A stretch of 18,857 nucleotides of DNA from Candidatus Fervidifonticultor quintus (GTDB lineage Bacteria > Sysuimicrobiota > Sysuimicrobiia > Sysuimicrobiales > Humicultoraceae). The position numbers and the translations under genes are program-made. The stretch is taken from assembly GCA_031459535.1 (NCBI GenBank), contig JAVKIJ010000064.1:1-18857 (forward strand), written 5' to 3'. Positions 2,190-18,857 of this stretch are shown here, piece after piece (position 1 is the first letter of the stretch; the number at the start of each line of letters is the position of its first letter). The notes beneath the pieces were generated by a model. That model was given only the letters and a program-made list of their open reading frames with translations. It had not been told where the DNA came from and searched no databases.

Positions 2190-2393
2190 CGCGACGGGTG
2201 CAGCATGTCCACGTGGATCTCGCCTTCGCCAGAGTGGGGACGCGCTTGCGGAAGTGATGTGATGCGGTTCAGGAGGCCCGGAACTGGCCGCAGGCGGCCC
2301 CCTTCCCTGCACCCGGGCCGCCCCGGGGCAGGGGATCATCCCCCAGAGGTAAAAAGGCTCTGTCAGTACCAGGATATCCGGGAGCGCAGACGC

Positions 2394-4580: not shown

Positions 4581-4584
4581 CGCC

Positions 4585-5835
4585 GTGACGCTCCAGCCGT
4601 ACAGCATGGGAATCGGCGACCGGTTCGGCCGCCAGGGCCGCGCGCAGCTCGAGGCCTTCGTGCAGGCCAGGGCCCTGGGGATCGACCTGGTCCCGGTGTG
4701 GAACAAGTCGCACCGTGAGCACCGGATCATCGGCACGCATCCTGCGGCGGTGCGCGCCGAGGCCGACGCCGCCGCCTCGGCCCTGGGCTGGAGGCACTCC
4801 TACTACGTCGACGCCGACCACATCACGCTCGAGACCGTGAACGCATTCATCCCGGCCAGCGACTTCTTCACCATCGACGTGGCTGACTACGTGGGCCGAT
4901 CGGCCTCCCAGAGCGACGTCTCGGACTTCGTGGCGCGGCACCGCCGGCTCATCGGCGTGGTGCGTATCCCGGGGATCGAACGCGAGCTCACCATCTCTGA
5001 CGGCGAGGTGGCTGCGATCGCCCGGAAGTACCTGCGGGCCGTGCGGGAGGCGGGTGCCATCTATCGCCACGTGGAGGCTGCCAAGGGTCGCGACCAGTTC
5101 ATCACCGAGGTGTCCATTGACGAGACGGACACTCCACAGACGCCCGTCGAGTTACTGTTCATCCTCGCAGCCATGGCGGACGAAGGGATCCCGGCGCAGA
5201 CCGTCGCCCCCAAGTTCACCGGCCGGTTCAACAAGGGCGTGGACTACGCCGGCGACGTGGGCCAGTTCGAGCGAGAGTTCGCCGAGGATCTGGCCGTGAT
5301 CGCGTTCGCCGTCGGCGAGTTCGGCCTGCCCACCAATCTCAAGCTCAGCGTGCACTCTGGCAGCGACAAGTTCGCGATCTACGAACCCATCGCCCGGGCC
5401 CTGCGCCGGAGTGGCGCCGGCGTCCACCTCAAGACCGCCGGCACCACATGGCTGGAAGAGGTCGCCGGGCTGGCGGCGTCAGGGGGAGAAGGCCTGCGGC
5501 TCGTGCAGGACATCTACGAGCAGGCCCATGCGCGGATCGACGAACTCTGCGCGCCGTACGCGGCGGTGATCGACATTGACCGCGGCCGTCTGCCCGACCC
5601 TGGGGAGGTCAGGCGATGGTCGGGACAGGAGTTCGTCGCCGCCCTGCGTCACGATCCGACCTCCCCGGCGTATAACCCGCACTTCCGCCAGCTGCTCCAC
5701 GTAGCCTTCAAGGTCGCCGCCGAGATGGGCCCCGCCTACCTGCAGGCCCTCGATGCCCATGCCGGCGTCATCGGCCCCCTGGTTACGGAGAACCTGCTCG
5801 AGAGGCACATCCAGCCCCTCTTCGGGCGCCTGTAG
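4585..5835 (+). CDS. uxaE: Tagaturonate/fructuronate epimerase family protein (UxaE-like)
   Basis: Motifs SMGIGDRFG, DADH, FFTIDV, EVSIDET, APKFTGRFNKGVDY, KLSVHSGSDKF and HLKTAGTTWLEE. The GTG at 4585 lies 4 nt after the upstream stop. Confidence 0.85.
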   Translation: MTLQPYSMGIGDRFGRQGRAQLEAFVQARALGIDLVPVWNKSHREHRIIGTHPAAVRAEADAAASALGWRHSYYVDADHITLETVNAFIPASDFFTIDVADYVGRSASQSDVSDFVARHRRLIGVVRIPGIERELTISDGEVAAIARKYLRAVREAGAIYRHVEAAKGRDQFITEVSIDETDTPQTPVELLFILAAMADEGIPAQTVAPKFTGRFNKGVDYAGDVGQFEREFAEDLAVIAFAVGEFGLPTNLKLSVHSGSDKFAIYEPIARALRRSGAGVHLKTAGTTWLEEVAGLAASGGEGLRLVQDIYEQAHARIDELCAPYAAVIDIDRGRLPDPGEVRRWSGQEFVAALRHDPTSPAYNPHFRQLLHVAFKVAAEMGPAYLQALDAHAGVIGPLVTENLLERHIQPLFGRL

Positions 5836-5851
5836 CGTCCCAGGCTTCGGG

Positions 5852-6625
5852 TCAGGCGAGCCGGTATACCCCGGGCGCGATCTCGGGGAACTTCTGCCAC
5901 ACCTCCGCATCGTGGCCAGGGCACAGGCGCCCCTCATCGCCGCCGCACAGCGTCCGAATTCGCTGCATGGCCTCCAGGCACTCGCGCACGCTGCCCAGGT
6001 GGATGGCTGGGGGAATCCAGTCGCGCAGATTCCGGTACGTCGTCAGGGCGTCGTTGGCGATCACGAACGGCCCCCTGGCGGTGTCCACCACGACGATCTG
6101 CATTCCGGGGGAATGACCGCCGACCCACTCCAGACGGATGCCGGGGGCGGGCTCGCCGGTGCCGTCGATCACCCGCAGCCGCCCCGATGTGCGGACGGCC
6201 TCGAGGTCCTCGAAGAGGCAGTCGCTCGTGAACCGCTGGTGCCAGGGCTCCCGACCGCCGTAGTCCATCCAGAACTCCAGCTCCCGCTTCTGCACCCAGA
6301 ACGTGGCCCTGGGAAACGCGCCTTCCAGGTTGAAGTGATCCCAGTGCATGTGGGTGAGAATCACTGTGGTGACCGCACCCGGCTCCACACCCAGGGCGCC
6401 CAGCAGCTGCTCCCGGGTGCGCAACTGGTCCACGGGCACGCCCTTGACCTTCCCGAGCCGGTGCGTGAACCCGGTGTCCACGACCACCGGACCGTCCGGG
6501 CCCCGCAGCACCCAGAGGAAGTACGCTGATGTGGTCGTCTCGCCCACGGGGTACAGGTAGAGGCGGGTCGACCAGTCCACCAGACGACCGCCGGGGCTCA
6601 ACGCGAAGATCTCCCAGGTGCTCAT
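5852..6625 (-). CDS. Metallo-beta-lactamase-fold hydrolase, N-acyl homoserine lactonase-like family
   Basis: VVDTG, THMHWDH (HxHxDH), GHSPG, ANDA and PGHD metal ligands; GGAGGAGG RBS upstream of ATG 6625. Confidence 0.85.
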   Translation of the reverse strand: MSTWEIFALSPGGRLVDWSTRLYLYPVGETTTSAYFLWVLRGPDGPVVVDTGFTHRLGKVKGVPVDQLRTREQLLGALGVEPGAVTTVILTHMHWDHFNLEGAFPRATFWVQKRELEFWMDYGGREPWHQRFTSDCLFEDLEAVRTSGRLRVIDGTGEPAPGIRLEWVGGHSPGMQIVVVDTARGPFVIANDALTTYRNLRDWIPPAIHLGSVRECLEAMQRIRTLCGGDEGRLCPGHDAEVWQKFPEIAPGVYRLA

Positions 6626-6759
6626 CACGAGGGCCTCCTCCCTGGTGCTCACTACGTACTTCTTCGCTCCGCCAGCACCGACCCCTCGATGCACCCGCAA
6701 GCGGGTATCAGACGCCGATCGCGCGAAGGAATCCACAACCGACCGGGAGGGAACCGACG

Positions 6760-7734
6760 ATGGCCGACCAACGTCTTCTCTATCTCTCGCAGGCCGACGT
6801 GGCGTCTGCCGGCGTCACCATGCAGGAGATCATCGACGCGCTCGAGGCGGCGTTCCGCGAGCACGGCGAGGGCCGGGTGGAGATGCCGCCCAAGCCCGGC
6901 GTACACCCGCGTCCCGACGCGTTCATCCACGCCATGCCGGCCTACATCCCTGCGCTGCACGCGGTCGGCCTCAAGTGGGTGAGCGGGTATCCGGAGAACT
7001 ACCGACGCGGGCTGCCGTATATCAGTGGACTGCTGATCCTCAATGATGAAGAGACCGGCGTGCCGCTGGCGGTGATGGACGCCACGTGGATCACTGCCAT
7101 GCGCACAGGCGCGGCGACCGCGGTGGCGGCAAAGTACCTCGCCCGGCCCGACTCGCAGACCCTGGGCATCCTGGGCTGCGGCGTGCAGGGCCGCAGCAAT
7201 CTGGAGGCACTGCGGGTGCTGTTCCCGATAGAGCGCGTCATCGCCTACGACATCGTGCCCGAGCAGACCGCGCGGTTCGCCGCCGAGGTGAGGGCTCGTT
7301 GGGGGCTGGAGGTCGTGGCGGCGCGGCAGCCGCGGGAGGCGGTCTCCGGTTGCGACCTGGTGGTAACGGCCGGTCCCATCCTGCGGCGGCCCCACGCCAC
7401 CATCAAGGCCGGCTGGTTGGAGGAAGGCGCTTTCGCGTCGCTGGTGGACTTCGACTCCTACTGGGATGGGGCCGCCCTGCGAGAGGTGGACAAGTTCTGC
7501 ACCGACGACATCCCCCAGCTCGAGCACTATCGCGCTGCCGGGTATTTCCAGGACATCCCGCCCATCTACGGGACGGTAGGCGAGCTGGTGGCGGGCAAGA
7601 AGCCGGGACGCCAACACCCCAGGGAGCGCACCATGACGTGCAACCTGGGGCTGGCGCTGGACGACATGGCGACGGCACCCATCGTCTACCGCCGGGCGAT
7701 CGAACGGGGAGCGGGGACCTGGCTCCCGCTGTAG
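6760..7734 (+). CDS. Ornithine cyclodeaminase / mu-crystallin family protein
   Basis: MPPK, HAMPA, GLKWVSGYPEN, ITAMRTGAA, Rossmann GILGCGVQG and GLALDD motifs; GGGAGGG RBS before ATG 6760. Confidence 0.9.
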   Translation: MADQRLLYLSQADVASAGVTMQEIIDALEAAFREHGEGRVEMPPKPGVHPRPDAFIHAMPAYIPALHAVGLKWVSGYPENYRRGLPYISGLLILNDEETGVPLAVMDATWITAMRTGAATAVAAKYLARPDSQTLGILGCGVQGRSNLEALRVLFPIERVIAYDIVPEQTARFAAEVRARWGLEVVAARQPREAVSGCDLVVTAGPILRRPHATIKAGWLEEGAFASLVDFDSYWDGAALREVDKFCTDDIPQLEHYRAAGYFQDIPPIYGTVGELVAGKKPGRQHPRERTMTCNLGLALDDMATAPIVYRRAIERGAGTWLPL

Positions 7735-7772
7735 CAGATCGAGCGCAGCGCCCGATGCCTTCGCCGACGGCG

Positions 7773-8699
7773 CTAGTGACGGAGCAGATTCCGCAGGACG
7801 AACAGAACGTTGGCGGGCCGCTCGGCGAGCCGGCGCATGAAGTACGGATACCAGTCCGACCCAAACGGCGTGGCGACCAGCACCTGGTAGCCCTGCGCCA
7901 CCAAGTCGAGCTGCAGTTGCGGGCGCACCCCGTAAAGCATCTGGAACTCGAAGCGCTCGGGGCCGATCCCGTGGGTGCGGACGAAGTCGATTACGTGGTG
8001 GATGATCCGGTCGTCGTGGGTGGCAATGGCCGTGTAGCCTCCGTCCGCCAGTGCGCGCTCCGCCAGCTTGATATAGTTGCGGTCCACGTCGGCCTTCTTC
8101 GGGAACGCCACGGTTGGTGGTTCCAGGTAGGCTCCCTTCACCAGGCGCAGGTTGGGCCGGTACGGGAGCAGCGCTTCCAGGTCGGCCTCGCTCCGGTAGA
8201 GGTACGACTGGAGGGCCGTGCCCACGTTGTCCAGCCCGTCGGCCCGTAGACGGCGGTAGATCTCCAGCGTGGCGTCCGTGCGGCCGGAATCCTCCATGTC
8301 GATGCGGATGAAGTTCCCCAGCCCGGCGGCGTACTGCACCAGGTGCGCGACGTGGCCGTAGGCCACATCCACCCCCCGATCCAGCCCGAGGTGCGTGAGC
8401 TTCAAGGCCACATTGCAGCGCAGCCCTTCCTGTCTGATCCGGTCCAGGATGACCACGTACTGCTCCACCACGGCGCGGATCAAGGCCTCCTCGGTGAGTC
8501 CCTCACCCAGCAGCGTGGTGTTGGTCTTCAGGCCCCTGGCATTGAGACCGCGCAGGACCCTGACGCACTCGTCCAGGCTCTCGCCCGCGACGAACCGCGC
8601 CGCCCCGAGCCGCATGCCGTAGCGCCGAACCCAGGCCGTCATCCGGGGACTGCGTGCCGCGGAGAGAATGACGTGGCGGAACAGTGAGGTCGCCGGCAT
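7773..8699 (-). CDS. Monofunctional proline dehydrogenase
   Basis: RFVAGE, LLGE, ALKLTHLG, FIRIDME, LQSYL, LRLVKGAY, IATHD, EFQMLYG and WYPYFMRRLAERPAN motifs. Confidence 0.93.
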   Translation of the reverse strand: MPATSLFRHVILSAARSPRMTAWVRRYGMRLGAARFVAGESLDECVRVLRGLNARGLKTNTTLLGEGLTEEALIRAVVEQYVVILDRIRQEGLRCNVALKLTHLGLDRGVDVAYGHVAHLVQYAAGLGNFIRIDMEDSGRTDATLEIYRRLRADGLDNVGTALQSYLYRSEADLEALLPYRPNLRLVKGAYLEPPTVAFPKKADVDRNYIKLAERALADGGYTAIATHDDRIIHHVIDFVRTHGIGPERFEFQMLYGVRPQLQLDLVAQGYQVLVATPFGSDWYPYFMRRLAERPANVLFVLRNLLRH

Positions 8700-8708
8700 C
8701 CAGCCCAC

Positions 8709-8737
8709 AGCGTATGGGGCCGGCCCGGGGGCGTCAA
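8709..8737 (-). promoter_or_regulatory. Putative sigma70-type promoter for the proline dehydrogenase gene
   Basis: Minus strand TTGACG (8737-8732), 17 nt, TACGCT (8714-8709), then 9 nt before ATG 8699. Confidence 0.55.
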
Positions 8738-8753
8738 GCTTCGGGGTAGCGCC

Positions 8754-10745
8754 CTAGCGGCTCCCGGCCAGGCCCCACCCGAGGACCCGAGCGAGCTCGT
8801 CTGCCGAGGTCAGCCCATCGAGCACGAGCGCCCTGCCGGCCTCGTAGATCCGCGAGCCATCCTCGAGCACCCGCTCGACGACTTCGCCGGCCCGACCGAC
8901 CCTTAGCATCCGCCGGCTTGAGGCGTCAACGCACCAGACGTCGAGGAGCAGGCGCCGGCCCTTGAACCCGGTGAAGCCGCAGGTTTCGCATCCGGTCGGC
9001 GCGAAGGTCCGCGCACCCCGGAAGGGACCCGCATCACCACTGACCGGCTGCTTACACGCCGGGCAGAGCAGCCGAACGGCGCATGCGGCGACGATCGCCC
9101 GGAGCGTGGAGGCCACCAGCGCCGGCCCCACGGCGTCCAGCGCCTCGCTCAGCACCGAGACCACCTCGCCGGCCGCGTGACCGGCCAGCAGCACTCGCGT
9201 GCGTCCGGCTTCGAACACCGCGGCCTGGGCCGGCCGGCTCGAGGTATCGTCAACAATCACCAGATCGGCGCCGGCTTCGCCCGCGGCGGCGATCGTCGGT
9301 GCCACGTCGGCCCCGGGAGCGCGCACGGTCTGGTTGATGGTCGAGCGCCGGTAGACCGGGGCAGCCTCGAGGGCCCAGATCTTGCCGCGTAGCCCGGCGG
9401 GAACCAGGCCGTGGAGCAGGGTCGAGCGCACCCACCGGTCGGCGCACCCGACCACGACCACACCTGAGGCGGCCTGCAGCGCTTCGCGGACCGGCTGGAT
9501 GAGTTCCTCGGACACCCCTAGGGCCGGAAGGTCGGGCACGTCGGCGTGCAGCGGTTGCACCACCACCGTGGCTGCCTCGCCGTACATGGTCGGTAGGAAG
9601 GTCCCCACGAGCATCACGTCTCGATCTCCCACCGGAAGGGTGACTGTCGCGGTGGTCCCCGCCGCCCCGCCGGCGCCGGTGATGTGGCGCAGATGCCTGA
9701 GAATCCCGGCGTGCAGGTCGGCCGGCTGCCCAGGCCGGTCCACGAGCACACCCTGCAGGCGGTACCGTACGCGGGCCGCACCGTCGGGCCCCGGGTCGAA
9801 GTGGATCTCAGTTCCCCCCTGCTGCAGGGCCTGCACCAGGTGGAACTGGAAGTACTGGGCCTCCGTCGCCCCAACCGTCGGTGTGCCGCTGTCGCTGGGT
9901 GTGCTGCGGTTTGGGAAGAACCAGTCCTGCATCTGTTCGATGTTGGACGACAGGGCCAGCGCCCGGCGTACCTGCAGGCCGGTCCGCGCCGTGATCTCGT
10001 CCACGGTCTGCTGGTCGGTAGGGTCCACCATGGCCAGGGTCATCTCCTGGCCGAACTTGAGGATGGGCAGCACCCGGCGGTCGCGCACGAAGGCCTCGGG
10101 CAACAGTCGGGCCGTCTCCGCATCGATGATCTCGGGCGACAGATACACGTAGGGATAGCCGAGCTGATGGCTCAACGCCCAGGCGAGGTCGTCTTCGGAC
10201 AGCGCGCCCTGCTCGACGAGCACCTGGCCGAGACGCTTGCCGCTCCTGGCCTGGGCGGCCATCGCCTGTTGGAGCTGGTCGGGGGTAATGAGCATGTTGG
10301 CCACGAGCAACTCGCCCAGCCGGTCCGGCTGCCCGGCGCTGCGGGCCCGCTCATCGTCCGGACCTGGAGCGGCACCCGGCAGCCAGGCGGCGATCTCCTG
10401 GGGAAAGGTACGAACATTGATGGGCTTTTCCACCGTGCCGAGGCAACCCGCCTGCAGCCACGCCTCCCGGTCCTCCGGCGCGGCCAGCGCACTCATGGCG
10501 AGGACCCGGATGGCGGCGCTGCGGGGGTTCTCTCGCAGTTTGCGCAGCACGTCCAGCCCGTGCAGGTCGGGCAGGTGCATATCGAGCAGGATGAGGTCGG
10601 GTTGCGTCTCTTGGGCCAGCGCCAGTGCCTCGGCACCTGAGCGCGCCTCGCTGACCTCGAATCCCGCGGGTTGCAGCACCCTGCGCACGAGCGTCAGGTT
10701 GGGCGGCTGATCATCCACCACCAGCACGCGCGGCAGGCGTTTCAT
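8754..10745 (-). CDS. Fusion of receiver domain, tandem MshEN motif and GspE/PilB-like domain with degenerate ATPase motifs (about 663 aa)
   Basis: REC (VLVVDD, LILLD, AMSA, EKP); two MshEN repeats; T2SSE-N-like LAMVDP; EIHFDP..VRYRLQGVL; CPAC and GCETCGFTGFKGR Zn motif. The Walker A position reads VVVVGCADRWVRST. ATG 10745 overlaps the upstream stop (ATGA). Confidence 0.88.
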   Translation of the reverse strand: MKRLPRVLVVDDQPPNLTLVRRVLQPAGFEVSEARSGAEALALAQETQPDLILLDMHLPDLHGLDVLRKLRENPRSAAIRVLAMSALAAPEDREAWLQAGCLGTVEKPINVRTFPQEIAAWLPGAAPGPDDERARSAGQPDRLGELLVANMLITPDQLQQAMAAQARSGKRLGQVLVEQGALSEDDLAWALSHQLGYPYVYLSPEIIDAETARLLPEAFVRDRRVLPILKFGQEMTLAMVDPTDQQTVDEITARTGLQVRRALALSSNIEQMQDWFFPNRSTPSDSGTPTVGATEAQYFQFHLVQALQQGGTEIHFDPGPDGAARVRYRLQGVLVDRPGQPADLHAGILRHLRHITGAGGAAGTTATVTLPVGDRDVMLVGTFLPTMYGEAATVVVQPLHADVPDLPALGVSEELIQPVREALQAASGVVVVGCADRWVRSTLLHGLVPAGLRGKIWALEAAPVYRRSTINQTVRAPGADVAPTIAAAGEAGADLVIVDDTSSRPAQAAVFEAGRTRVLLAGHAAGEVVSVLSEALDAVGPALVASTLRAIVAACAVRLLCPACKQPVSGDAGPFRGARTFAPTGCETCGFTGFKGRRLLLDVWCVDASSRRMLRVGRAGEVVERVLEDGSRIYEAGRALVLDGLTSADELARVLGWGLAGSR

Positions 10746-11197
10746 CTCGCAAGCCTCCCCTCCGCCATGGGGCGATCCTCCTGGGCGTAGCGTTGTCTGA
10801 GCTGAGCGCCGATGCGGGCGGCCAGGTCGGCGGCGACAAATGGCTTTGTCACGTAGTCGCGCGCCCCCGCCGCCAGGCCCGCCACCATCGCCTGCTCGCC
10901 GGCGACCGCGGTGAGGAAGATGACGGGAACTGCTGCGGTGGCCGGGTCGGCCTGGAGCATGCGGCAGACATCCAACCCCGACAGCTCGGGCATCATGATG
11001 TCCAGCAGGATGAGATCGGGGCGGAAGGCGCCCACGGCCTCGAGGGCCTCGCGGCCGCTGCAGACGGCCCGCACCGTGCACCCCCAGCGCGTCAGGTGGG
11101 CAGCCAGGACTTTGAGATTGATGGGCTCGTCATCGACGATGAGGATCCGGGGTGTTCGGCCGCCGATGTAGGCTTCGAGCGAAATGGCTTGGGTCAT
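10742..11197 (-). CDS. Single-domain response regulator
   Basis: ILIVDDE, LILLDIMMP, IFLTA and YVTKPF, a complete receiver set with no output domain. Confidence 0.9.
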   Translation of the reverse strand: MTQAISLEAYIGGRTPRILIVDDEPINLKVLAAHLTRWGCTVRAVCSGREALEAVGAFRPDLILLDIMMPELSGLDVCRMLQADPATAAVPVIFLTAVAGEQAMVAGLAAGARDYVTKPFVAADLAARIGAQLRQRYAQEDRPMAEGRLAR

Positions 11198-11225
11198 TGT
11201 CCAGAGTCCCCCGTCCGCTCCCGTC

Positions 11226-13496
11226 TCAATCGATCCGCAATCTCAAGACCCCGTCGAGAATCTTCATCAGCTCCCTGACGTCAATCGGCTTGGCCAGGCA
11301 CGCATGTGCGCCGGAGGCCAGCAGGCGCTCGGCCTGCTCGGGTGATGGGTCCGAGCTCAACACGACCACGGGGATCCGCCGTGTCTTCAGATCGGCCTGC
11401 AGGCGGTGCAGGACTTCGCTGCCCGGGATGTCGGGCAGGTGCACGTCGAGCAGGATCAGGTCGGGGACGTGTTCGCGGGCCAGGGTGAGACCCATGCGGC
11501 CCTGCATGGCCGACATCAGCTTCACCCCAGGCCGCCGGGCCAGCACGCGTTCGATCAGGTCCAGATGGGCCAGGTTGTCCTCGACGTACAGGACGGCGTA
11601 GGTCGTCTCGGTGAGGCCCCTGACGGCTCTGGCCTGCGCGACGTCTGCCGGACGATCGGCGGGCTGCGCGGCCGGCTCGGCCAGCGGGAGCTCGATCCAG
11701 AACGTGCTGCCGCGACCCACCTCGCTGTCCACACCGATCGTGCCGCCCATGACTTCGGTCAGGCGTTTAGAGAGTGCCAGGCCGAGCCCAGTCCCTTCAA
11801 CGCCGCCCCCGGCGGTCCCGAGCCGCTCGAAGGGGATGAACAGCCGCTCCTGCTTGTCCGCCGGAATGCCTGGACCGGTGTCGGTGACCTGGATGCGCAC
11901 GCGGTCATCCTGAGTGCGGTACGACAGGATGACCTCGCCGCCCACCTTGTTGTACTTGACGGCGTTGGAGAGCAGGTTCAGCAGCACCTGCTTGAGGCGC
12001 TGTCGATCGGCCAGGACCCTGTGCGCCTCGGCGTCGGCCATCTCGGGGCGCAGCCGCACGGCCCGCTCGGCCGCCAGCGGCGCGGTGAGCGCCAGCACCT
12101 CCTCGGCGATCTCCCCCAGTCCCACTGACTCCGGCGAAACGGACATGCGGCCCGCTTCGATACGGGCGATGTCCAGCACTTCATTGATGAGGTCCAGCAG
12201 GTGGCGGCCGGCCTTGAGGATGTAGCCCAGGTTCTCCCGCTGCTCCGGCGAGAGAGGGTCCATCTCCAACAACTGGGCGAAGCCCAGCACGGCGTTGAGC
12301 GGCGTGCGGAGTTCGTGGCTCATGCGGGAGAGAAACTCGCTCTTGGCCAGGTTCGCCCTCTCGGCGTCCAGCCGGGCCTGCTCGAGTGCGGCCTCGATCT
12401 CCTTGCGGTTGGTGATGTCTAACCCGAGGCCAAGCAGGCTCTCGACCGCACCCCGCTGATCGCGCTCAAGGGTGACCAATGTGTAGATCCAGTGATAGGT
12501 CCCGTCTTTGTGGAGCATGCGGTACTCGTCTGTGAACTGTCGCTCGCCCTCCGTGACCGCGTCGGACACCACGGCCCGGAACCGCTCGTAGTCCGCCGGG
12601 TGCATGTGCGCCTTCCAGAACCCCGGTGTCTGGAAGACCTCGTCGGGCGCATACCCCAGGACGCGCTCGGTGCTGGGGCTGATGTAAGAGACGCTCAGGT
12701 CCCCGGCTGAAGCCCGCCAGACGATGAAGGGGCCTGCCGCCACGAGATCTTCGAAGAAGGCGCCAGCCTCACGGCTCACGGCCACCCGCTCCATCGCCGA
12801 CCGCCCGGCCGCGTGGCGCAACTCGCGGTTCTCGAGCTCGAGCCGGCGATTCCTCTCCTGCAGTTCGGCCACGAACGAGGCACGGGCCAGGGCATGCCCG
12901 ATCCGCTGTGCGATCGTCAGGGCGAGGAGCTCGTCGTCCTCGGAGTACGGCACAGCGGCCGTCCCGCGCCTGGACACGTAGAGTACGCCGATGGGCTGAC
13001 CGTTGGTCTTCACCGGTGCCAGCAGTAGGCTGCGTGGTCCATACCGGTTCAGCGCAGCCCACAGGTCCGGCCGTACCGAGGGCCGCATGTCGTCCGGACT
13101 CGCCCTCGGGATCCGCACCGAGCGCCCGCTCTCCAGCACCCGCGTCAGCAGCGTGGGCCCGTCGCCAACGGACGGCACCAGCCCCGGGAGCGCCCGCATG
13201 AAATGCACGGCTTCTGGATCGGTGTCGGCAGCGGCGACGAGCCGGAGAGGCCCGCCGCCGGCCGGCCGGAGCAGAATCGCGCAACTATCGCCGAGGACCT
13301 CTGCGGTTCGCACCGCCGTCGCAGAGGCGATGGCGGTCTCGGTGAGATCTGCCTGGTCGATAGCCGCGCACACCTCGGCGAGCGCCTCGGCCCGCGACAG
13401 CCCCACCGAGCCGTGCCCCCTCGGGACGGGCGTTCCGGGTTCGCGTGCCGGTGGCATCTTTGACAGGGCGCGGTCCATGGGCGGCACAGATCTCAT
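11226..13496 (-). CDS. Hybrid sensor histidine kinase (GAF-PAS-HisKA-HATPase-REC)
   Basis: GAF-like N-terminus (SLLLAP..IGVLYV..YSEDD); PAS/PAC (YISPS..LGY, HPAD, EYR..KDG, DIT); H-box SHELRTPL; NAVKY; DTGPG; GTGLGL; C-terminal REC (YVED, LLDVHLP, AKP). Confidence 0.93.
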   Translation of the reverse strand: MRSVPPMDRALSKMPPAREPGTPVPRGHGSVGLSRAEALAEVCAAIDQADLTETAIASATAVRTAEVLGDSCAILLRPAGGGPLRLVAAADTDPEAVHFMRALPGLVPSVGDGPTLLTRVLESGRSVRIPRASPDDMRPSVRPDLWAALNRYGPRSLLLAPVKTNGQPIGVLYVSRRGTAAVPYSEDDELLALTIAQRIGHALARASFVAELQERNRRLELENRELRHAAGRSAMERVAVSREAGAFFEDLVAAGPFIVWRASAGDLSVSYISPSTERVLGYAPDEVFQTPGFWKAHMHPADYERFRAVVSDAVTEGERQFTDEYRMLHKDGTYHWIYTLVTLERDQRGAVESLLGLGLDITNRKEIEAALEQARLDAERANLAKSEFLSRMSHELRTPLNAVLGFAQLLEMDPLSPEQRENLGYILKAGRHLLDLINEVLDIARIEAGRMSVSPESVGLGEIAEEVLALTAPLAAERAVRLRPEMADAEAHRVLADRQRLKQVLLNLLSNAVKYNKVGGEVILSYRTQDDRVRIQVTDTGPGIPADKQERLFIPFERLGTAGGGVEGTGLGLALSKRLTEVMGGTIGVDSEVGRGSTFWIELPLAEPAAQPADRPADVAQARAVRGLTETTYAVLYVEDNLAHLDLIERVLARRPGVKLMSAMQGRMGLTLAREHVPDLILLDVHLPDIPGSEVLHRLQADLKTRRIPVVVLSSDPSPEQAERLLASGAHACLAKPIDVRELMKILDGVLRLRID

Positions 13497-14557
13497 CAGG
13501 CCAGCCCTTTGATCCGCAGTTTCAGGTCATTGGCCGAGTCCGCGGCCCGCAGGGCGTCCTCGTAGCTGATCAACCCCTGACGATGGAGCTCGAACAGGGC
13601 CTGGTCGAAGGTCTGCATGCCCTCCGAAACCCCGAGCTCTATGGCCTGCTTGATGGCAGCGATCTCGCCCTTCTTGATGAGTTCGCGAATGCGGGGGGTC
13701 GCCACCATGATCTCCACGGCGACCACCCGGCCCGAGCGGTCAGACCGCAGGACGAGGCGCTGCGAGACGATCGCCTCGAGCGTCAGCGAGAGCCGGTGGA
13801 GGACCTCCTGGGTGTGATCGGAGGGGAAAAAGGCCAGCATGCGTTCCAGGGCCTGAGACGCGTTGACCGAGTGCAGGGTACTCAACACCAGGTGCCCGGT
13901 CTCCGCGAAGTAGAGGGCCGCTTCGGCAGAGTCGCGATCCCGCATTTCGCCGATGAGCAGCACATCCGGCGTCTGACGGAGCGCTGACCGCAGGGCATCC
14001 GCGAAGCTCGGGGTGTCCGTGCCGACCTCCCTCTGGCTCACGATGCTGCGCTTGTCGGGGTGCAGGAACTCGATGGGGTCCTCTACCGTCACGATGTGGC
14101 CGTCTATCTGGCTGTTGCGGTAGTCAACCATCGCGGCCAGGGTGGTGGACTTCCCGGTGCCCGCGTGTCCGGTTACGAGGATCAGCCCGCGGCTGCGCAG
14201 GCTGAGCGCTCGGAGGACCGCCGGCAGCCTCAGCTCATCGAAGGAGGGGATGGCCAGTTTCACACGGCGGGCCACCAGCGCCACTGACCCCCGCTGGACG
14301 TAGACGTTCACCCGGAAGCGGCCCCGGCCCGGCAGGCTGTATGCCAGGTCGGCGCTCTGCTCGACCTGGAGCCTGTGCCGTTGCTCCTCTGTAAGCATCT
14401 GCAGGGCCAGCTCGCGGGCCAGGTCCTTGGAAACCACGTCCTGGGTGTTCGACGTGAGATGGCCGTGGATGCGGTAGGTGGGCGGGCAGCCAGCCTTGAC
14501 GTAGAGATCTGTGGCATCCAGCCCTTCCATGGCCTCCAGGAGATCGTTGATGTGCAT
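13496..14557 (-). CDS. pilU: PilT/PilU-family retraction ATPase (PilU-like)
   Basis: Walker A GHAGTGKST, TVEDPIE, QREVG, ALRQTPDVLLIGEMRD, GHLVLSTLH and GMQTFDQAL. It lacks AIRNLIRE and sits directly after pilT. Confidence 0.85.
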   Translation of the reverse strand: MHINDLLEAMEGLDATDLYVKAGCPPTYRIHGHLTSNTQDVVSKDLARELALQMLTEEQRHRLQVEQSADLAYSLPGRGRFRVNVYVQRGSVALVARRVKLAIPSFDELRLPAVLRALSLRSRGLILVTGHAGTGKSTTLAAMVDYRNSQIDGHIVTVEDPIEFLHPDKRSIVSQREVGTDTPSFADALRSALRQTPDVLLIGEMRDRDSAEAALYFAETGHLVLSTLHSVNASQALERMLAFFPSDHTQEVLHRLSLTLEAIVSQRLVLRSDRSGRVVAVEIMVATPRIRELIKKGEIAAIKQAIELGVSEGMQTFDQALFELHRQGLISYEDALRAADSANDLKLRIKGLA

Positions 14558-14578
14558 CGCGACGGCCTGCCTTCTGCG

Positions 14579-15667
14579 CTACATGCGGGCCACGACCGGC
14601 TCGCGCGTCCCCGGGGGACGCTCCGCCCCGAACATCGCCTTCTCGACGGCCCACCGGTACGCGACCTCGGCGGTGATCTGCCCGGTCTTCAGCAGGCTGC
14701 GCAGGCTCTGGTCGAGGCTCTGCATCCCGTCCTTGGTCCCCGTCTGGATCACCGAGAGGATCTGGTGGACCTTGCTCTCCCGGATCAGGTTGCGGATCGC
14801 GGGCGTGGCGATCATGACCTCCACGGCCGCCACGCGGCCCTTGCCGTTGGCCGTGGGGAGCAGCGTCTGGGCGATGACGGCCACCAGGCTCTCGCTCAAC
14901 TGGACCCGGATCTGCTCCTGCTGACTACTGGGGAAGACGTCGATGATCCGGTTGATGGTGGAGGCCGCGCTGGACGTGTGCAGCGTCGCCAGCACCAGGT
15001 GCCCGGTCTCCGCCGCGGTCAGGGCCATCGCGATCGTCTCCAGGTCCCGCATCTCCCCCACCAGGATCACATCGGGGTCCTCGCGCAGGGCGGCCCTCAG
15101 CGCTCCGGCAAACGACTTGGAGTTGGTCCCCACCTCTCGCTGGTTGACTACGCTGTGCCTGTGCTGATGAACGAACTCGATGGGGTCTTCGATGGTCACC
15201 ACATGGCAGTTCCGCCGCTCATTGATGATGTCCACCATCGCGGCCAGGGTGGTGGACTTGCCGGAGCCGGTGGGGCCGGTGACCAGGATGAGGCCTCGGT
15301 CCCTCAGGGCCAGGTCCTCCAGCACGGGCGGCAGCCCCAGCTCCGCCACCGTCTTGATCTTGGAGGGAATCAGGCGCAAGACAATGCCCTCACCCAGGCG
15401 ATGGCGGAAGACGTTGACCCGGAAGCGGCCGAGATTGGCGAGCTCGAGGGAGAAGTCGAGGTCCCAGTTCTCTTCGAACCGCGCCTTCTGGGTGTCGGAC
15501 AGGATGTCGTAGATGATCTCGTGCAGGTCCTGCTTGGTGAGGACCGGCGCGTCCTTCACGGGCCGCAGCTCCCCGTTCACGCGGAGCTTGGGCGGGATGC
15601 CCACGGTGAGGTGGAGATCCGAGGCATTCGCTTGCTTGGCCAGGATCAACAGGTCGGTGAGGTCCAC
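14579..15667 (-). CDS. pilT: Type IV pilus retraction ATPase PilT
   Basis: ASDLH, GPTGSGKSTT, TIEDPIE, LREDPDVILVGEMRD, GHLVLATLH and the PilT signature AIRNLIRE; GGAG RBS before GTG 15667. Confidence 0.95.
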   Translation of the reverse strand: MDLTDLLILAKQANASDLHLTVGIPPKLRVNGELRPVKDAPVLTKQDLHEIIYDILSDTQKARFEENWDLDFSLELANLGRFRVNVFRHRLGEGIVLRLIPSKIKTVAELGLPPVLEDLALRDRGLILVTGPTGSGKSTTLAAMVDIINERRNCHVVTIEDPIEFVHQHRHSVVNQREVGTNSKSFAGALRAALREDPDVILVGEMRDLETIAMALTAAETGHLVLATLHTSSAASTINRIIDVFPSSQQEQIRVQLSESLVAVIAQTLLPTANGKGRVAAVEVMIATPAIRNLIRESKVHQILSVIQTGTKDGMQSLDQSLRSLLKTGQITAEVAYRWAVEKAMFGAERPPGTREPVVARM

Positions 15668-15810
15668 GATGTCGCTCCGGAAGAACTGATGGCTTCCTCA
15701 AGAGGGATGGTGACGTCCGACACGGGCCGCGAGCCTCTGTCGGAGACCCACAGAGGGCTATGCCCGGATTTCGGCACCGATAGACTTCCCGAGGGGCGCC
15801 CAGTCGGGTG

Positions 15811-17691
15811 CTACCCGGGCTCGGGTGCGGTGCCGCCGGGCGGCGACGGGTCCGCCAGGAGGTCCCGGTCACGCCGGATGATGAGCTCCCGCTCCAGCGG
15901 TGACATGGTCTCCAGCAACCGCAACAGCGCATCAACCACGCCTGGGTCCAGCGTGGTGCCCGCCATGCGCCGCAGCTCGGCCTTGGCCTCTTCCAGGGAC
16001 TTCCGAGGTCGGTACGGCCGGTCCGAAATCAACGCATCGAACGTATCGGAGACGCGGATGATGCGGGCCCCCAAGGGGATCTGGGAACCCGCCAGACCAT
16101 CGGGATACCCGGTCCCGTCGTAGGCCTCCTGATGGTAGAGCACCAGATCCGCCAGGTGACTGAACGGTCCGGCCTCCGCGAGCATGGCCGCGCCCCGCTC
16201 GGGGTGCTTCCGCACCAGCTCCCATTCCGCAGGGCTGAGCGGTGAGGGCTTCCGGAGAATGACCTCGGGGATGGCGAGTTTGCCGATGTCGTGAATCATG
16301 CTGGCGAGTTTGATGCGCTCGATCTCCTCCGGCGGCAGCTCCAGCTCCATGGCGATGGCCACCGCGGTGCTCGCCACCCGGTGGCAGTGGGTCATGATCT
16401 CGCGGTCCCTGGCGGCGAGTACCTCGGTGAGCACCTTGATGCTGCCCAGCAGCAGCGTGCGCAGCTCCCGCTGGGCGCGGGCATCGGTCTCCGGGCTTTC
16501 GCTGGCGTCGATCAGGGCCTGCAGCGCTACCCGGTGCGGTCGGGACTGGAGCCGCCGCGGCCGGAAGACAGCCTGCTCTGCGGCGTCGCCCTCGCTGTCC
16601 GCCGCGCTAGCGGCCTCGGTCCCGCCCAGGCTCTCTGCCATCGGCTCGTGGAACACGACGCGGTTCTTGCCCTGCTTCTTGGCATCCAGCAAGGCCGCGT
16701 CCGCGCAGTCCAGCAACGAAGCCGCCGACAGGCGGCCGTGGTTGCGGAACTGGTACGTCGACGCGCCGACGCTGATGGTGACCCGGAACGTGCCCTCCGC
16801 GGTGGGAATCTCGGTTTCCTCTATGGCACGCCGCAGCCACTCACCACGCTGTACGGCATACTCGCGGTCGGTGCCCGGCAGGAGCCACACGAACTCTTCG
16901 CCGCCGTACCGGCATTGCGCGTCGCGCTCTCCCCTGCCTTCCAACATGATCTTGGCCACCTGCCGCAGGACGTCATCCCCGGCCTGGTGACCGTAGCGAT
17001 CGTTGATACCCTTGAACCAGTCGATGTCGATCACCAGACACGACAGCGGCTGGTCGCCGCGCGCCGCCCGCTCCATCTCCAGGTGCAGTCGGTCGTCGAA
17101 TGCCCGTCGGTTGAACAGGCTGGTGAGCGGATCACTGGCGGCGAGCTCCTCCAGGAAGCTGATCCGGCGTCGCAGCAGGTCCTCGCGGCCGCGCGCCCGG
17201 AGGATGGCCCGGATGCGGGCCGTCAGCTCCGTGGGGGACAGCGGCCGCTTCACGCAGTCTGCGGCGCCTTCATCGAGGCTAGCCGCCTGGCGCTCGACGT
17301 CGTCGGACGCGCTGAGTGCCACGATGGGGATACCGTGAGTGGCGGGGTCTCGCTTGAACGCCCGCACGGCCCCGATGCCGTCGAGGCCGGGCATGGCCAG
17401 GTCCAGGAGGACGAGATCAGGGGCCTGGGCCTTGGCGGTCGCAACGAGATCGGCAGCCTCGCTGGCGGCGGCGACCTGGGCCCCCAGCCCCTCGAGGCGG
17501 CGGGCAATGGTGCGGGCCGAGTGCACGTCGCTGACGACGAGGATGCGGGCGGGGCGGGAGCCGAACTGCAGGGCGCCGGTGGTCAACCTCTGGCGCGGCT
17601 TGGCGGTCTCCAGGTCATGGGGCATCCGGGTCTGTGACGCTGACAATGGCACCCTCGTGGCAGCCGACGGCTCTTCAGTGTGTGTTCCCAC
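15811..17691 (-). CDS. REC-GGDEF-HD-GYP protein (diguanylate cyclase / phosphodiesterase); start may be ATG 17625
   Basis: REC (DLVLLDLAMP); DPLTSLFNRR, DIDWFKGINDRYGHQAGD, RYGGEEF, AKKQGKNRV; HD-GYP motifs HCHRV, HDIGK, HPERG, DGTGYP, DTFDA and RPYR. Confidence 0.93.
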   Translation of the reverse strand: MGTHTEEPSAATRVPLSASQTRMPHDLETAKPRQRLTTGALQFGSRPARILVVSDVHSARTIARRLEGLGAQVAAASEAADLVATAKAQAPDLVLLDLAMPGLDGIGAVRAFKRDPATHGIPIVALSASDDVERQAASLDEGAADCVKRPLSPTELTARIRAILRARGREDLLRRRISFLEELAASDPLTSLFNRRAFDDRLHLEMERAARGDQPLSCLVIDIDWFKGINDRYGHQAGDDVLRQVAKIMLEGRGERDAQCRYGGEEFVWLLPGTDREYAVQRGEWLRRAIEETEIPTAEGTFRVTISVGASTYQFRNHGRLSAASLLDCADAALLDAKKQGKNRVVFHEPMAESLGGTEAASAADSEGDAAEQAVFRPRRLQSRPHRVALQALIDASESPETDARAQRELRTLLLGSIKVLTEVLAARDREIMTHCHRVASTAVAIAMELELPPEEIERIKLASMIHDIGKLAIPEVILRKPSPLSPAEWELVRKHPERGAAMLAEAGPFSHLADLVLYHQEAYDGTGYPDGLAGSQIPLGARIIRVSDTFDALISDRPYRPRKSLEEAKAELRRMAGTTLDPGVVDALLRLLETMSPLERELIIRRDRDLLADPSPPGGTAPEPG

Positions 17692-17726
17692 AGTGGATGC
17701 GGCCTAGTCGCCACACGGGAGTTCTG

Positions 17727-18433
17727 TCAGCGCCAGAGATGCCGCAGGGCCACGGTGAGCAGAATCGCCGCAAGGACCTTCCGGAGGTGGACTGGCAGTA
17801 GGCGATGGGCGCCGGTCCAGCTCCCCACGAGGCCACCCACGAAGGCTGCGGCGACCAGCGGGGCTAGATTGCCGAGCACCAGGGCGCCGCGGGCCGCGCG
17901 GCCGGCCAGACCTGCGACGGAGTTGACCACGATGAACGCAGCCGACGTGGCGGCGGTCGGCTTGGTTCCCGCCCATCCGGCCAGGATCATCAGAGGGCTG
18001 AGGAAGATGCCGCCGCCCACCCCGACCACCCCGGAAAGGACGCCGATACCCGCGCCGGTGGACAGGGCCACGATCCAGGACAGCGGGCGCGGCGGCCGTT
18101 CGGTGGGACTCCACCAGAGGCGCGCGGCGGCCGCCACCAGCGCCACGCCCAACAGCAGGCCGTAGACCTGAGGTGACACGTGGAGCAACCCGCCGAGGTA
18201 GGCTCCGGGCACCGACGGACGAGGAAGGGCAGAATCAGGCGCGCCGAAAGGTGTCCGGCCCTGGCGTAGGTGATCATCGCCACACCGGCGACCAGGATGT
18301 TGAGGACCAAGGCGCTGGTGGACATCTCGGCGGGCGGAACCCTGTAGAGGCTCAGCACGGCCAGATAGCCCGACGCCCCGCCGTGCCCAACCGAGGCATA
18401 CACGGCTGCGACGACCGCCACCAGGATCAGCAT
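17727..18433 (-). pseudogene. Sulfite exporter TauE/SafE family permease split by a 1-nt frameshift near 18216
   Basis: N-half YASVGHGGASGY...LILPFLV and C-half SVPGAYLGG...GVVGVGGGIFLSP...TSAAFIVVNS are in different frames. Minus strand GTC CG TCG GTG lacks one base. This could be a sequencing error. Confidence 0.8.
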
Positions 18434-18458
18434 GCTGGGAGACAGGCCGCCCTGGGGA

Positions 18459-18647
18459 TTACTGTTCGCGCACCTGGTTGATGCGCATGATGCTGTGCAG
18501 GCTGATGATGTACTGCAGAGAGCCCACCATGAGCATGATGTAGTCGTCGCCGACCTCGAGGAGGTCGCCGAACTGGGTCTCCTCGTTGGTGAACAGCACG
18601 CTCACCCGCGTGCCCTTCCACTCCTGGAGCCGCTCGCCCAGTGTCAC
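18459..18647 (-). CDS. Small (62 aa) protein, possibly Sm/Hfq-like fold
   Basis: Very strong purine-rich RBS (GGAGGAGGGGGAGG) before GTG 18647; natural composition. Pattern is helix, then VSV..TN..GxLxxxxDDYIML, then IISLHSIxxI. Confidence 0.7.
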   Translation of the reverse strand: MTLGERLQEWKGTRVSVLFTNEETQFGDLLEVGDDYIMLMVGSLQYIISLHSIMRINQVREQ

Positions 18648-18790
18648 CGCACTGCCTCCCCCTCCTCCCCTCCGGCTCTCGTCTCGACATTCGGAGGTGA
18701 GCAGGAAACTCCTTGCGGGCAGGAAGCGCGGGAATGCCGTACAATAGCATCTTGATCGCGCCCGTGATGTCGCCTAGTGACGCCCAACCC

Positions 18791-18857
18791 ATGATCCTCC
18801 TGGAGGACGTGCACAAGTGGTTCGGAAGGCTGCACGTCCTCCGCGGGGTCAACCTGG
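18791..18857 (+). CDS. Amino-acid ABC transporter ATP-binding protein (GlnQ-like), 5' fragment running off the window
   Basis: MILLEDVHKWFGRLHVLRGVNL is a typical N-terminus of polar amino-acid ABC ATPases; only 22 codons are visible. Confidence 0.7.
   Translation, partial: MILLEDVHKWFGRLHVLRGVNL

Follow-up and report, generated by a model that had tools for sequence, protein, structure and literature searches.

A conserved PilB-type pseudo-ATPase with receiver and MshEN domains, linked to pilT and pilU, suggests an undescribed mode of type IV pilus switching

What does a PilB-like protein that has lost every ATPase motif do next to the retraction motors of the type IV pilus? The question is raised by an 18,857-bp contig (JAVKIJ010000064.1, our C100; analysed entire and called the window below) from the 3.1-Mb, 88.85% complete metagenome-assembled genome of the uncultured Candidatus Fervidifonticultor quintus. 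On its minus strand lie six co-oriented genes: G1, encoding a 626-aa protein with a receiver domain (REC) followed by GGDEF and HD-GYP domains (15811..17691); G2, the 362-aa retraction ATPase PilT (14579..15667); G3, a 353-aa PilU-like second retraction ATPase (13496..14557); G4, a 756-aa cytoplasmic hybrid histidine kinase of GAF-PAS-HisKA-HATPase-REC architecture, without a histidine phosphotransfer (HPt) domain (11226..13496); G5, a 151-aa single-domain receiver (10742..11197); and G6, a 663-aa pseudo-ATPase of REC-MshEN-PilB-like architecture (8754..10745). By open reading frame coordinates the successive gaps from G1 to G6 are 143, 21, -1, 28, and -4 nt, the start of G4 overlapping the stop of G3 by 1 nt. 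This orientation, order, domain content, and spacing had been described in an earlier account made from the letters alone (the sequence-only reading) and were confirmed with open reading frames, Pfam, and NCBIfam; the block holds one kinase and four REC domains and no further domain types, and Pfam likewise agrees with the description that it has neither Che-type genes nor a DNA-binding regulator.

The moment-to-moment choice between pilus extension and retraction is only partly understood, and the known regulators (FimX-PilZ, PilG/PilH, and cyclic di-GMP, hereafter c-di-GMP, on active PilB) all act on working motors. We propose that G6 is a non-catalytic PilB-type subunit whose engagement of the pilus base or of PilT/PilU is set jointly by phosphorylation of its REC, driven by G4, and by c-di-GMP, so that the pilus is biased towards extension or retraction; we give this reading a probability of about 0.5. 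It starts from the observed domains, motif loss, fold, conservation, and gene linkage, from which we infer the phosphotransfer, the c-di-GMP binding, the protein contacts, and the direction of the effect. If it is true, a conserved pseudo-motor that combines a receiver with a c-di-GMP reader and is linked genetically to PilT/PilU would represent a new type of regulator; the module suggests that type IV pili can be switched in a manner not yet described.

The start of G6 was set at the ATG at 10745, in agreement with the orthologue alignment and with an ATGA overlap that has a GGAGG-rich stretch upstream. The protein is divided into REC (residues 1-125), MshEN (about 141-280), N2D (about 293-400), and the C-terminal domain CTD (about 410-657). 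We aligned it with the orthologues from 17 loci of related genomes and with the three other PilB-like proteins of its own genome. Throughout the G6 family the glycine-rich P-loop with its lysine, the Asp box, the glutamate of Walker B, and the arginine fingers have been lost, and the tetracysteine has been kept. With the patterns GX4GK[ST] for Walker A and Dh4GE for the atypical Walker B (PMC6762196), neither motif occurs in any of 32 database members of the family (0/32 for each) or in the 18 locus-derived sequences that include the window (0/18 for each). The three other PilB-like genes of the genome, which are MshEN-PilB genes, carry both (3/3 and 3/3), and the PilTs score 19/19 for Walker A and 18/19 for Walker B. 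The scores of G6 against the equivalog models lie far below their cut-offs (TIGR02538, 119.6 bits against 675.65; TIGR02533, 97.1 against 630.25), and its identity to the active PilBs is only 25-31%. G6 is thus predicted to be incapable of acting as an extension motor.

The loss of every ATPase motif might also be read as the mark of a decaying pseudogene without function, which is scarcely credible here: the family comprises about 100 sequence clusters with full-length open frames at 47-89% identity, contigs from an RNA library cover G6, and the structural model is confident and PilB-like (AF2, mean pLDDT 82.7). The mean column identity of the family is 59%, and the many invariant columns fall in the MshEN motif, N2D, the altered region that replaces the P-loop, and the tetracysteine CxxC...CxxC at 561-589, whose C561, C564, C586, and C589 are invariant in 32 sequences. 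Because of this conservation, the confident model, and the MshEN motif, we regard G6 as a folded, selected pseudo-ATPase with two sensory inputs.

The c-di-GMP motif of MshEN domains is defined as two 24-residue copies of RLGxx(L)(V/I)xxG(I/F)(L/V)xxxxLxxxLxxQ with a 5-residue spacer (PMC10519070). The tandem motif of G6, at residues 142-194, has two 24-residue copies and a 5-residue spacer, with M in the first copy where G is usual; a relaxed form of the pattern was matched by 22 of 32 family members, the core residues being invariant, and the score of G6 against NF053729 was 70.7 bits (cut-off 38). G6 thus has the signature of an MshEN c-di-GMP receptor and is predicted to bind the nucleotide. 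The remainder of the protein is modelled with the N2D and CTD RecA-like fold of PilB/GspE (PF00437): in Foldseek comparisons the core of the AF2 model superposed on Geobacter PilB and Thermus PilF (5tsh, 5oiu, 5it5) with target-normalised TM-scores of 0.81-0.84 and root-mean-square deviations of 3.2-3.6 Å. Both the best sequence matches and the best fold matches are extension ATPases that bear MshEN. With this class, represented by V. cholerae MshE, M. xanthus and Geobacter PilB, and T. thermophilus PilF (5tsh, 5oiu, 6f8l, 5htl), G6 shares the MshEN tandem motif, the N2D-CTD fold, and the tetracysteine zinc site; in contrast to it, G6 is without Walker A, the Asp box, the glutamate of Walker B, and the arginine fingers, and adds an N-terminal REC. 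MshEN has been noted in combination with REC and with other domains (Wang et al., 2016, PMC5013675). The literature searched gave no account of a REC-MshEN-dead-PilB protein or of a pseudo-ATPase pilus regulator, although the supplementary tables of PMC5013675 may list the architecture.

Is this dead PilB paralogue tied to the retraction motors outside the window? The comparison covered 17 loci of related genomes and, with the window and two metagenome loci, 20 loci in all; as the genomes are kin, the loci cannot be counted as independent. In 17/17 of the relatives' loci pilT stands directly after the dead PilB. In 12 of these pilU comes after pilT; one contig ends inside pilT, and in four there is no pilU in the approximately 1.9 kb available. 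Same-strand hybrid kinases lie upstream of the dead PilB in 10/17 loci, with cores 46-73% identical to G4 and differing sensors (GAF-PAS, PAS only, dCache-HAMP). A G5-like single REC stands directly upstream of the dead PilB in eight loci (seven recognised with Pfam and one with tblastn); the G5 orthologues in the relatives' loci are 56-78% identical, and most of them hold this position. REC-HD-GYP genes are found inside the cassette in six of the 17 loci. Two-component or c-di-GMP signalling genes lie upstream of 13 of the 14 REC-bearing dead PilB orthologues and of none of the three REC-less ones (0/3). In one relative (G005, L018:4678-5730, minus strand) the G5-type receiver is fused to a GGDEF domain with a degenerate active-site motif and a remaining RxxD site, which may be an additional c-di-GMP receptor inside the cassette. 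The conserved unit is thus smaller than six genes, namely a MshEN-PilB paralogue without Walker A and B, usually with an N-terminal REC, and then pilT; genes for a hybrid kinase, a single REC, and/or REC-HD-GYP proteins usually come before it. The tight arrangement of dead PilB and pilT persists across three families; in family f5 a more divergent MshEN-PilB without Walker A lies directly upstream of pilT-pilU in 2/2 loci examined. In the whole phylum set, homologues of G6 at E<=1e-70 are present in 29/94 genomes (20/33 in family f1, 8/23 in f4, and 0/37 elsewhere); these 94-genome tallies include the unpublished genomes G013 and G022, and no locus-level claim rests on these two.

The order pilT-pilU-kinase-REC-dead PilB is found only in the window among the 20 loci. 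The sequence-only reading had expected a conserved order and a self-contained unit of six genes, and neither expectation survived the comparison. It had proposed that the genes form a single operon, with a private c-di-GMP pool made and broken down by G1 and read by G6, and with a kinase-driven phosphorelay. Several observations agree with this: all six genes are co-oriented with short gaps, the 143-nt spacer that separates G1 from pilT (15668..15810) is spanned by contigs (one of them from the RNA library), no terminator-like site was found in the block, and G1 combines a REC with GGEEF, HD, and GYP motifs. The presence of REC-HD-GYP genes in the cassettes of 6/17 relatives even makes a local c-di-GMP link plausible. 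Against it, G1 adjoins the cassette in 1/20 loci. Full-length G1 orthologues (56-64% identity) occur in six relatives, each on a contig other than that of the cassette, and the three examined share a housekeeping context beside genes for EPSP synthase, TruA, and an ECF transporter; the other genes of the window were not near the G1 orthologues in the five loci checked. Gene order, moreover, cannot prove local pools. G1 is a genome-specific neighbour outside the conserved core and became part of the cluster in this genome only, a private c-di-GMP pool at this locus is a conjecture, and the six-gene scheme as a whole seems to us decidedly unlikely.

The enzymatic capacity of G1 bears on the same point. 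Its GGEEF motif is intact, its metal and substrate residues align with those of PleD, and the I-site reads GxxD instead of RxxD, so product inhibition is probably absent. In HD-GYP phosphodiesterases the HD, HHE, and GYP motifs have metal-ligand roles. G1 has HD and GYP with HQE in place of HHE; in the six cassette-linked HD-GYP proteins of relatives the motif reads HHE(R) in five and HHEQ in the sixth. HQE in the G1 clade against HHE in five of six cassette HD-GYPs makes phosphodiesterase activity of G1 uncertain. The same HQE for HHE before GYP was seen in all four REC-GGDEF-HD-GYP proteins compared (window 15811-17691, L076, L078, and L079).

The phosphorelay part of the proposal fared no better. 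PF01627 had no match in the window's genome (given its 88.85% completeness) or in 15 relatives of the same family, although a divergent HPt that Pfam cannot see may be missed in such a search; the same search gave three matches in other families, and control genomes also gave matches. Since no HPt was found, the more probable arrangement is a branched two-component scheme, with one kinase for several competing receivers, and not a His-Asp-His-Asp relay.

The motors themselves furnish the strongest argument of this analysis that sensor module and retraction motors act together. G2 contains Walker A, Walker B, and AIRNLIRE and scores 496.5 bits against TIGR01420 (cut-off 319.1), as expected of a PilT. 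G3 lies 21 nt after pilT, has both Walker motifs (A and B) intact and no AIRNLIRE, and scores 430 bits for the PilT/PilU family against the same cut-off of 319.1, which makes it a putative PilU by sequence criteria. These motors are 61-66% (PilT) and 54-58% (PilU) identical to the cassette pairs of relatives, as against 80% and 78% (PilT) and 78% and 76% (PilU) for the stand-alone pairs of genus g8, and 77% and 73% (PilT) and 70% and 71% (PilU) for the pairs of family f5. A quick maximum-likelihood tree separates the cassette pairs (lineage 'A'; support 99 for PilT and 97 for PilU) from a lineage 'B' made up of the window, g8, and f5; for PilU, group 'B' has a support of 97-99 (SH-aLRT 99 and 97) and stands apart from 12 cassette PilUs. 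The window's pilT-pilU pair thus belongs to another paralogue lineage than the pair that follows the dead PilB in relatives. The 'B' pair of f5 is itself preceded by the more divergent MshEN-PilB without Walker A in the two loci examined, the 'B' pair of g8 lies among glycosyltransferase genes, and the G6 cassette of g8 keeps an A-type PilT only. An A-type pilT-pilU pair was not found in the window's genome at its 88.85% completeness. The block of kinase, REC, and dead PilB has here been coupled to the other pair of motors; the order is new, and stop and start overlap by 1 nt. Because the G6 module adjoins a different pilT-pilU lineage in this way, the linkage was re-made and not merely inherited. 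Such natural re-wiring, with the same sensor module beside another PilT-PilU lineage in another order, is unusual evidence of linkage under selection. The 143-nt spacer and the junctions were also searched for a 3' remnant of a dead PilB and for repeats, and only chance matches of 13-14 nt were seen.

Other observations weigh against a functional tie of G6 to the motors. At E<=1e-70, G6 is without a match in 65/94 genomes of the phylum. In all four loci examined in f4 genus g23, f7, and f2 the pilT-pilU genes have no detectable dead PilB upstream, and the same is true of the stand-alone pilT-pilU pairs of genus g8; since such pairs occur in the same phylum, the motors do not need a dead PilB. 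Adjacency of pilB and pilT(-pilU) is common, and inheritance from an ancestral pilB-pilT-pilU operon could account for much of the linkage. The tree is a quick one, in which the support of lineage 'B' for PilT is 82, below the threshold of 95. Finally, the RNA support consists of assembled contigs of one library, and a contig that spans two genes is no proof of a single transcript.

With these reservations, the proposed role of G6 in switching can be set out in three steps. The kinase G4 would sense an intracellular cue and pass phosphate straight to receivers with no HPt in between: the REC of the kinase itself, the single-domain receiver G5, and the N-terminal REC of G6. The first two probably compete as phosphate sinks or serve as modulators. 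The MshEN domain of G6 would bind c-di-GMP, the level of which would be set by REC-controlled enzymes (G1 here and the REC-HD-GYP proteins in relatives). Under these two signals G6 would sit at the base of the type IV pilus machine as a regulated subunit, for docking or as an adaptor, that decides whether PilT/PilU engage, and the pilus would be biased between extension and retraction. An adaptor role is suggested because the PilB fold and zinc site are kept and no ATP hydrolysis should be possible. There is a precedent for a non-hydrolysing ring as adaptor, as PilU works through an ATPase-dead (Walker-mutant) PilT (PMC6762196). Of the extend/retract switch that the sequence-only reading had envisaged, what stands is a post-translational signalling module tied to PilT/PilU around a dead PilB with a c-di-GMP motif, the core being present in 17/17 loci; its form as a six-gene unit with a phosphorelay does not.

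Four known systems place this proposal. The FimX-PilZ-PilB system of Xanthomonas and Pseudomonas also turns a degenerate enzyme into a sensor of c-di-GMP, by which the motors of type IV pili are controlled post-translationally, and FimX also bears an N-terminal receiver-like domain (PMC11656802). In contrast, the sensor here is a dead motor paralogue and not a GGDEF-EAL protein, the locus has no PilZ adaptor, and the conserved neighbour is pilT and not pilB; a Pfam search of the block's six proteins detected neither EAL nor PilZ, in line with the distinction drawn before. In Pil-Chp (PilG/PilH) and in cyanobacterial CheY-like control, receivers act on pilus motors without a transcriptional step. 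The present block differs from Pil-Chp in having no CheA, CheW, methyl-accepting chemotaxis protein (MCP), or HPt, in its GAF-PAS hybrid kinase, and in the fusion of one receiver to the dead motor; the separation from Pil-Chp and Frz-type control holds, with no CheA-type, CheW, or MCP domain in the six proteins and no HPt found in the genome. PilT-dependent PilU systems (V. cholerae, P. aeruginosa) resemble the proposal in that a non-hydrolysing ring can act as the adaptor of PilU (PMC6762196), and G2 and G3 show their pattern of a PilT with and a PilU without AIRNLIRE. However, the inactive ring of those systems is a laboratory mutant of PilT, whereas here it would be a naturally dead, conserved PilB-type protein. 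Post-translational control of type IV pili by c-di-GMP and two-component signals is of a kind already known, of which the dead-PilB module would be a new form. With its single kinase, small number of receivers, one pseudo-ATPase, and pair of motors, the set is compact and testable, and, being soluble throughout and from a thermophile, it suits biochemistry and cryo-EM.

Where would such a pilus come from? In agreement with the expectation that the structural pil genes lie elsewhere, they are found on another contig of the genome (C93). This locus (L081, G000:C93, 1383-12188, minus strand) comprises two pilin-like genes, PilB, PilC, a further pilin-like gene, and a divergent PilT-like ATPase without AIRNLIRE, along with three genes without a Pfam match and the secretin. 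One PilC was found in the genome, as against three active PilBs.

These active PilBs are the possible targets in the main rival explanation, in which G6 is an extension decoy: it would compete with active PilB or co-assemble into its hexamers and block or poison extension when phosphorylated and/or bound to c-di-GMP, PilT and PilU being merely co-expressed. The whole N2D-CTD fold and zinc site of PilB are present in G6, so the docking or ring interfaces of PilB could be usable, and there are stand-alone HD-GYP genes beside two of the active PilBs, which shows that c-di-GMP and PilB are linked more generally in this organism. The first of them (L083:6087-6902, minus strand) adjoins an active MshEN-PilB paralogue (L083:3804-5687, minus strand), and the second (L082:1940-2677, plus strand) shares a contig with another (L082:12651-14876, minus strand); because of these pairs and of the cassettes, c-di-GMP turnover can be said to adjoin MshEN-bearing PilB-type proteins repeatedly in this lineage. 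The conserved neighbour of G6, however, is pilT and never an active pilB or pilC, the identity of 25-31% to the active PilBs makes mixed rings less likely, and the new linkage with a second lineage of pilT-pilU speaks for the retraction side. We therefore consider the decoy unlikely. The second of these contigs (C107) also carries a Roadblock/LC7 (MglB-like) gene (L082:8723-9094) and a TPR-MshEN-PilB.

A non-pilus output was also weighed, in which G6 would be a scaffold dependent on c-di-GMP and phosphorylation for, e.g., exopolysaccharide (EPS) or secretion, and its adjacency to pilT a relic of a pilB-pilT-pilU operon. There are hints in this direction, as PilB of M. xanthus has a signalling role in EPS regulation (PMC5544727), glycosyltransferase genes flank the 'B' motor pair of g8, and only the one PilC gene was found in the genome. 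On the other hand, the tightness of dead PilB and pilT is kept across three families, the linkage was re-made here with a second pilT-pilU lineage, and the window is without EPS or secretion genes; such an output is, in our view, very unlikely.

If G6 acts on PilT/PilU as proposed, the principle may be broader than this lineage, and we advance the following generalisation only tentatively, as a possibility that we doubt more than we believe. Naturally dead PilB paralogues might form a general, overlooked class of 'clutch' for type IV pilus motors, sitting at the docking site or stacked with PilT/PilU, with engagement set by fused sensors, which here would be a receiver and an MshEN reader supplied by a kinase of their own; the CSP1-3 module would then be a complete two-signal logic gate on retraction (phosphate AND c-di-GMP), and the principle might have arisen or spread in several phyla, including those of the MshEN-PilB-like homologues without Walker A that are labelled Methylomirabilota or Rokubacteria. 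Among 16 distant homologues fetched from an all-against-library search, 10 lack Walker A, two have arginine in place of its lysine, and four are intact. Two of the intact ones (P0144 and P0146) are REC fusions, and REC is also present on two of those without Walker A. The members of the distant-homologue clusters are labelled Rokubacteria/Methylomirabilota. A short C-terminal tail resembling P-W-T-(S/L)-P is seen in many G6 orthologues (L015, L016, L020, L021, L025, L026), not in the G6 of the window, and also ends the Methylomirabilota-labelled homologues without Walker A P0127, P0181, P0205, and P0264; it could be a docking peptide.

Fervidifonticultor is a genus of the hot-spring candidate phylum CSP1-3/Sysuimicrobiota, for which autotrophic enrichments have been reported (PMC11604079), and the sequencing runs that hold the window are hot-spring metagenomes. 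In the main text of the CSP1-3 phylum paper (PMC11604079) the words 'pili' and 'pilus' are absent. The relatives retrieved by protein search carry the NCBI label Armatimonadota, one of them being 'Candidatus Fervidifonticultor octavus'; the G6 clusters, where named, likewise bear the label Armatimonadota or 'bacterium', and their annotation goes no further than 'response regulator' or 'PilB'. Two relatives of G6 (P0002 and P0003, 88-89% identical) were not among the loci returned by the related-locus search, in which true relatives made up three of 16 loci on genome contigs and four of 30 on metagenome contigs.

The gene order of the window was checked against Logan contigs of three DNA runs and one RNA (metatranscriptome) library, all from one study, two of the DNA runs being a possible source of the assembly. 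The DNA contigs of the three runs bridge every junction: G1/pilT (15257-18857, 15032-18115, and 15257-18132), pilT/pilU (14054-15061), pilU/kinase (11962-14074), the stretch from the kinase to G6 (10435-13336), and G6/proline dehydrogenase (7492-9191 and 4467-9191). Because independent contigs bridge all junctions, we regard the order as real and not as an assembly artefact. Contigs of the RNA library cover G6, G4, the G3/G4 junction (12703-13619), G2, the spacer between G1 and G2 (15512-16468), and G1. They are compatible with expression and read-through; this evidence is weak, as assembled contigs may include DNA carry-over. A scan of 7600-18857 gave no consensus promoter or terminator anywhere in this range, the 143-nt spacer included, a negative that is uninformative for a high-GC, non-model phylum. 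One RNA-library contig, which covers the end of the proline dehydrogenase gene and the 3' part of G6 (window 8008-9389), differs from the window at 27/1382 positions and therefore indicates a second, closely related strain in that sample.

The flanks of the block are unrelated to pili, with proline dehydrogenase downstream and a TauE-type exporter upstream in two overlapping frames. The TauE/SafE exporter (17727-18433, minus strand) is split between the frame 17990-18433, which matches profile positions 2-71, and the frame 17727-18212, which matches positions 74-236. The split implies a frameshift at about 18200; in none of the four runs was an insertion or deletion against the window reported. 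Farther away in the window, a 791-aa frame (2205-4580, plus strand) has only a weak transaldolase-family match and overlaps the start of a tagaturonate-epimerase-like gene (4453-5835, plus strand) by about 128 nt.

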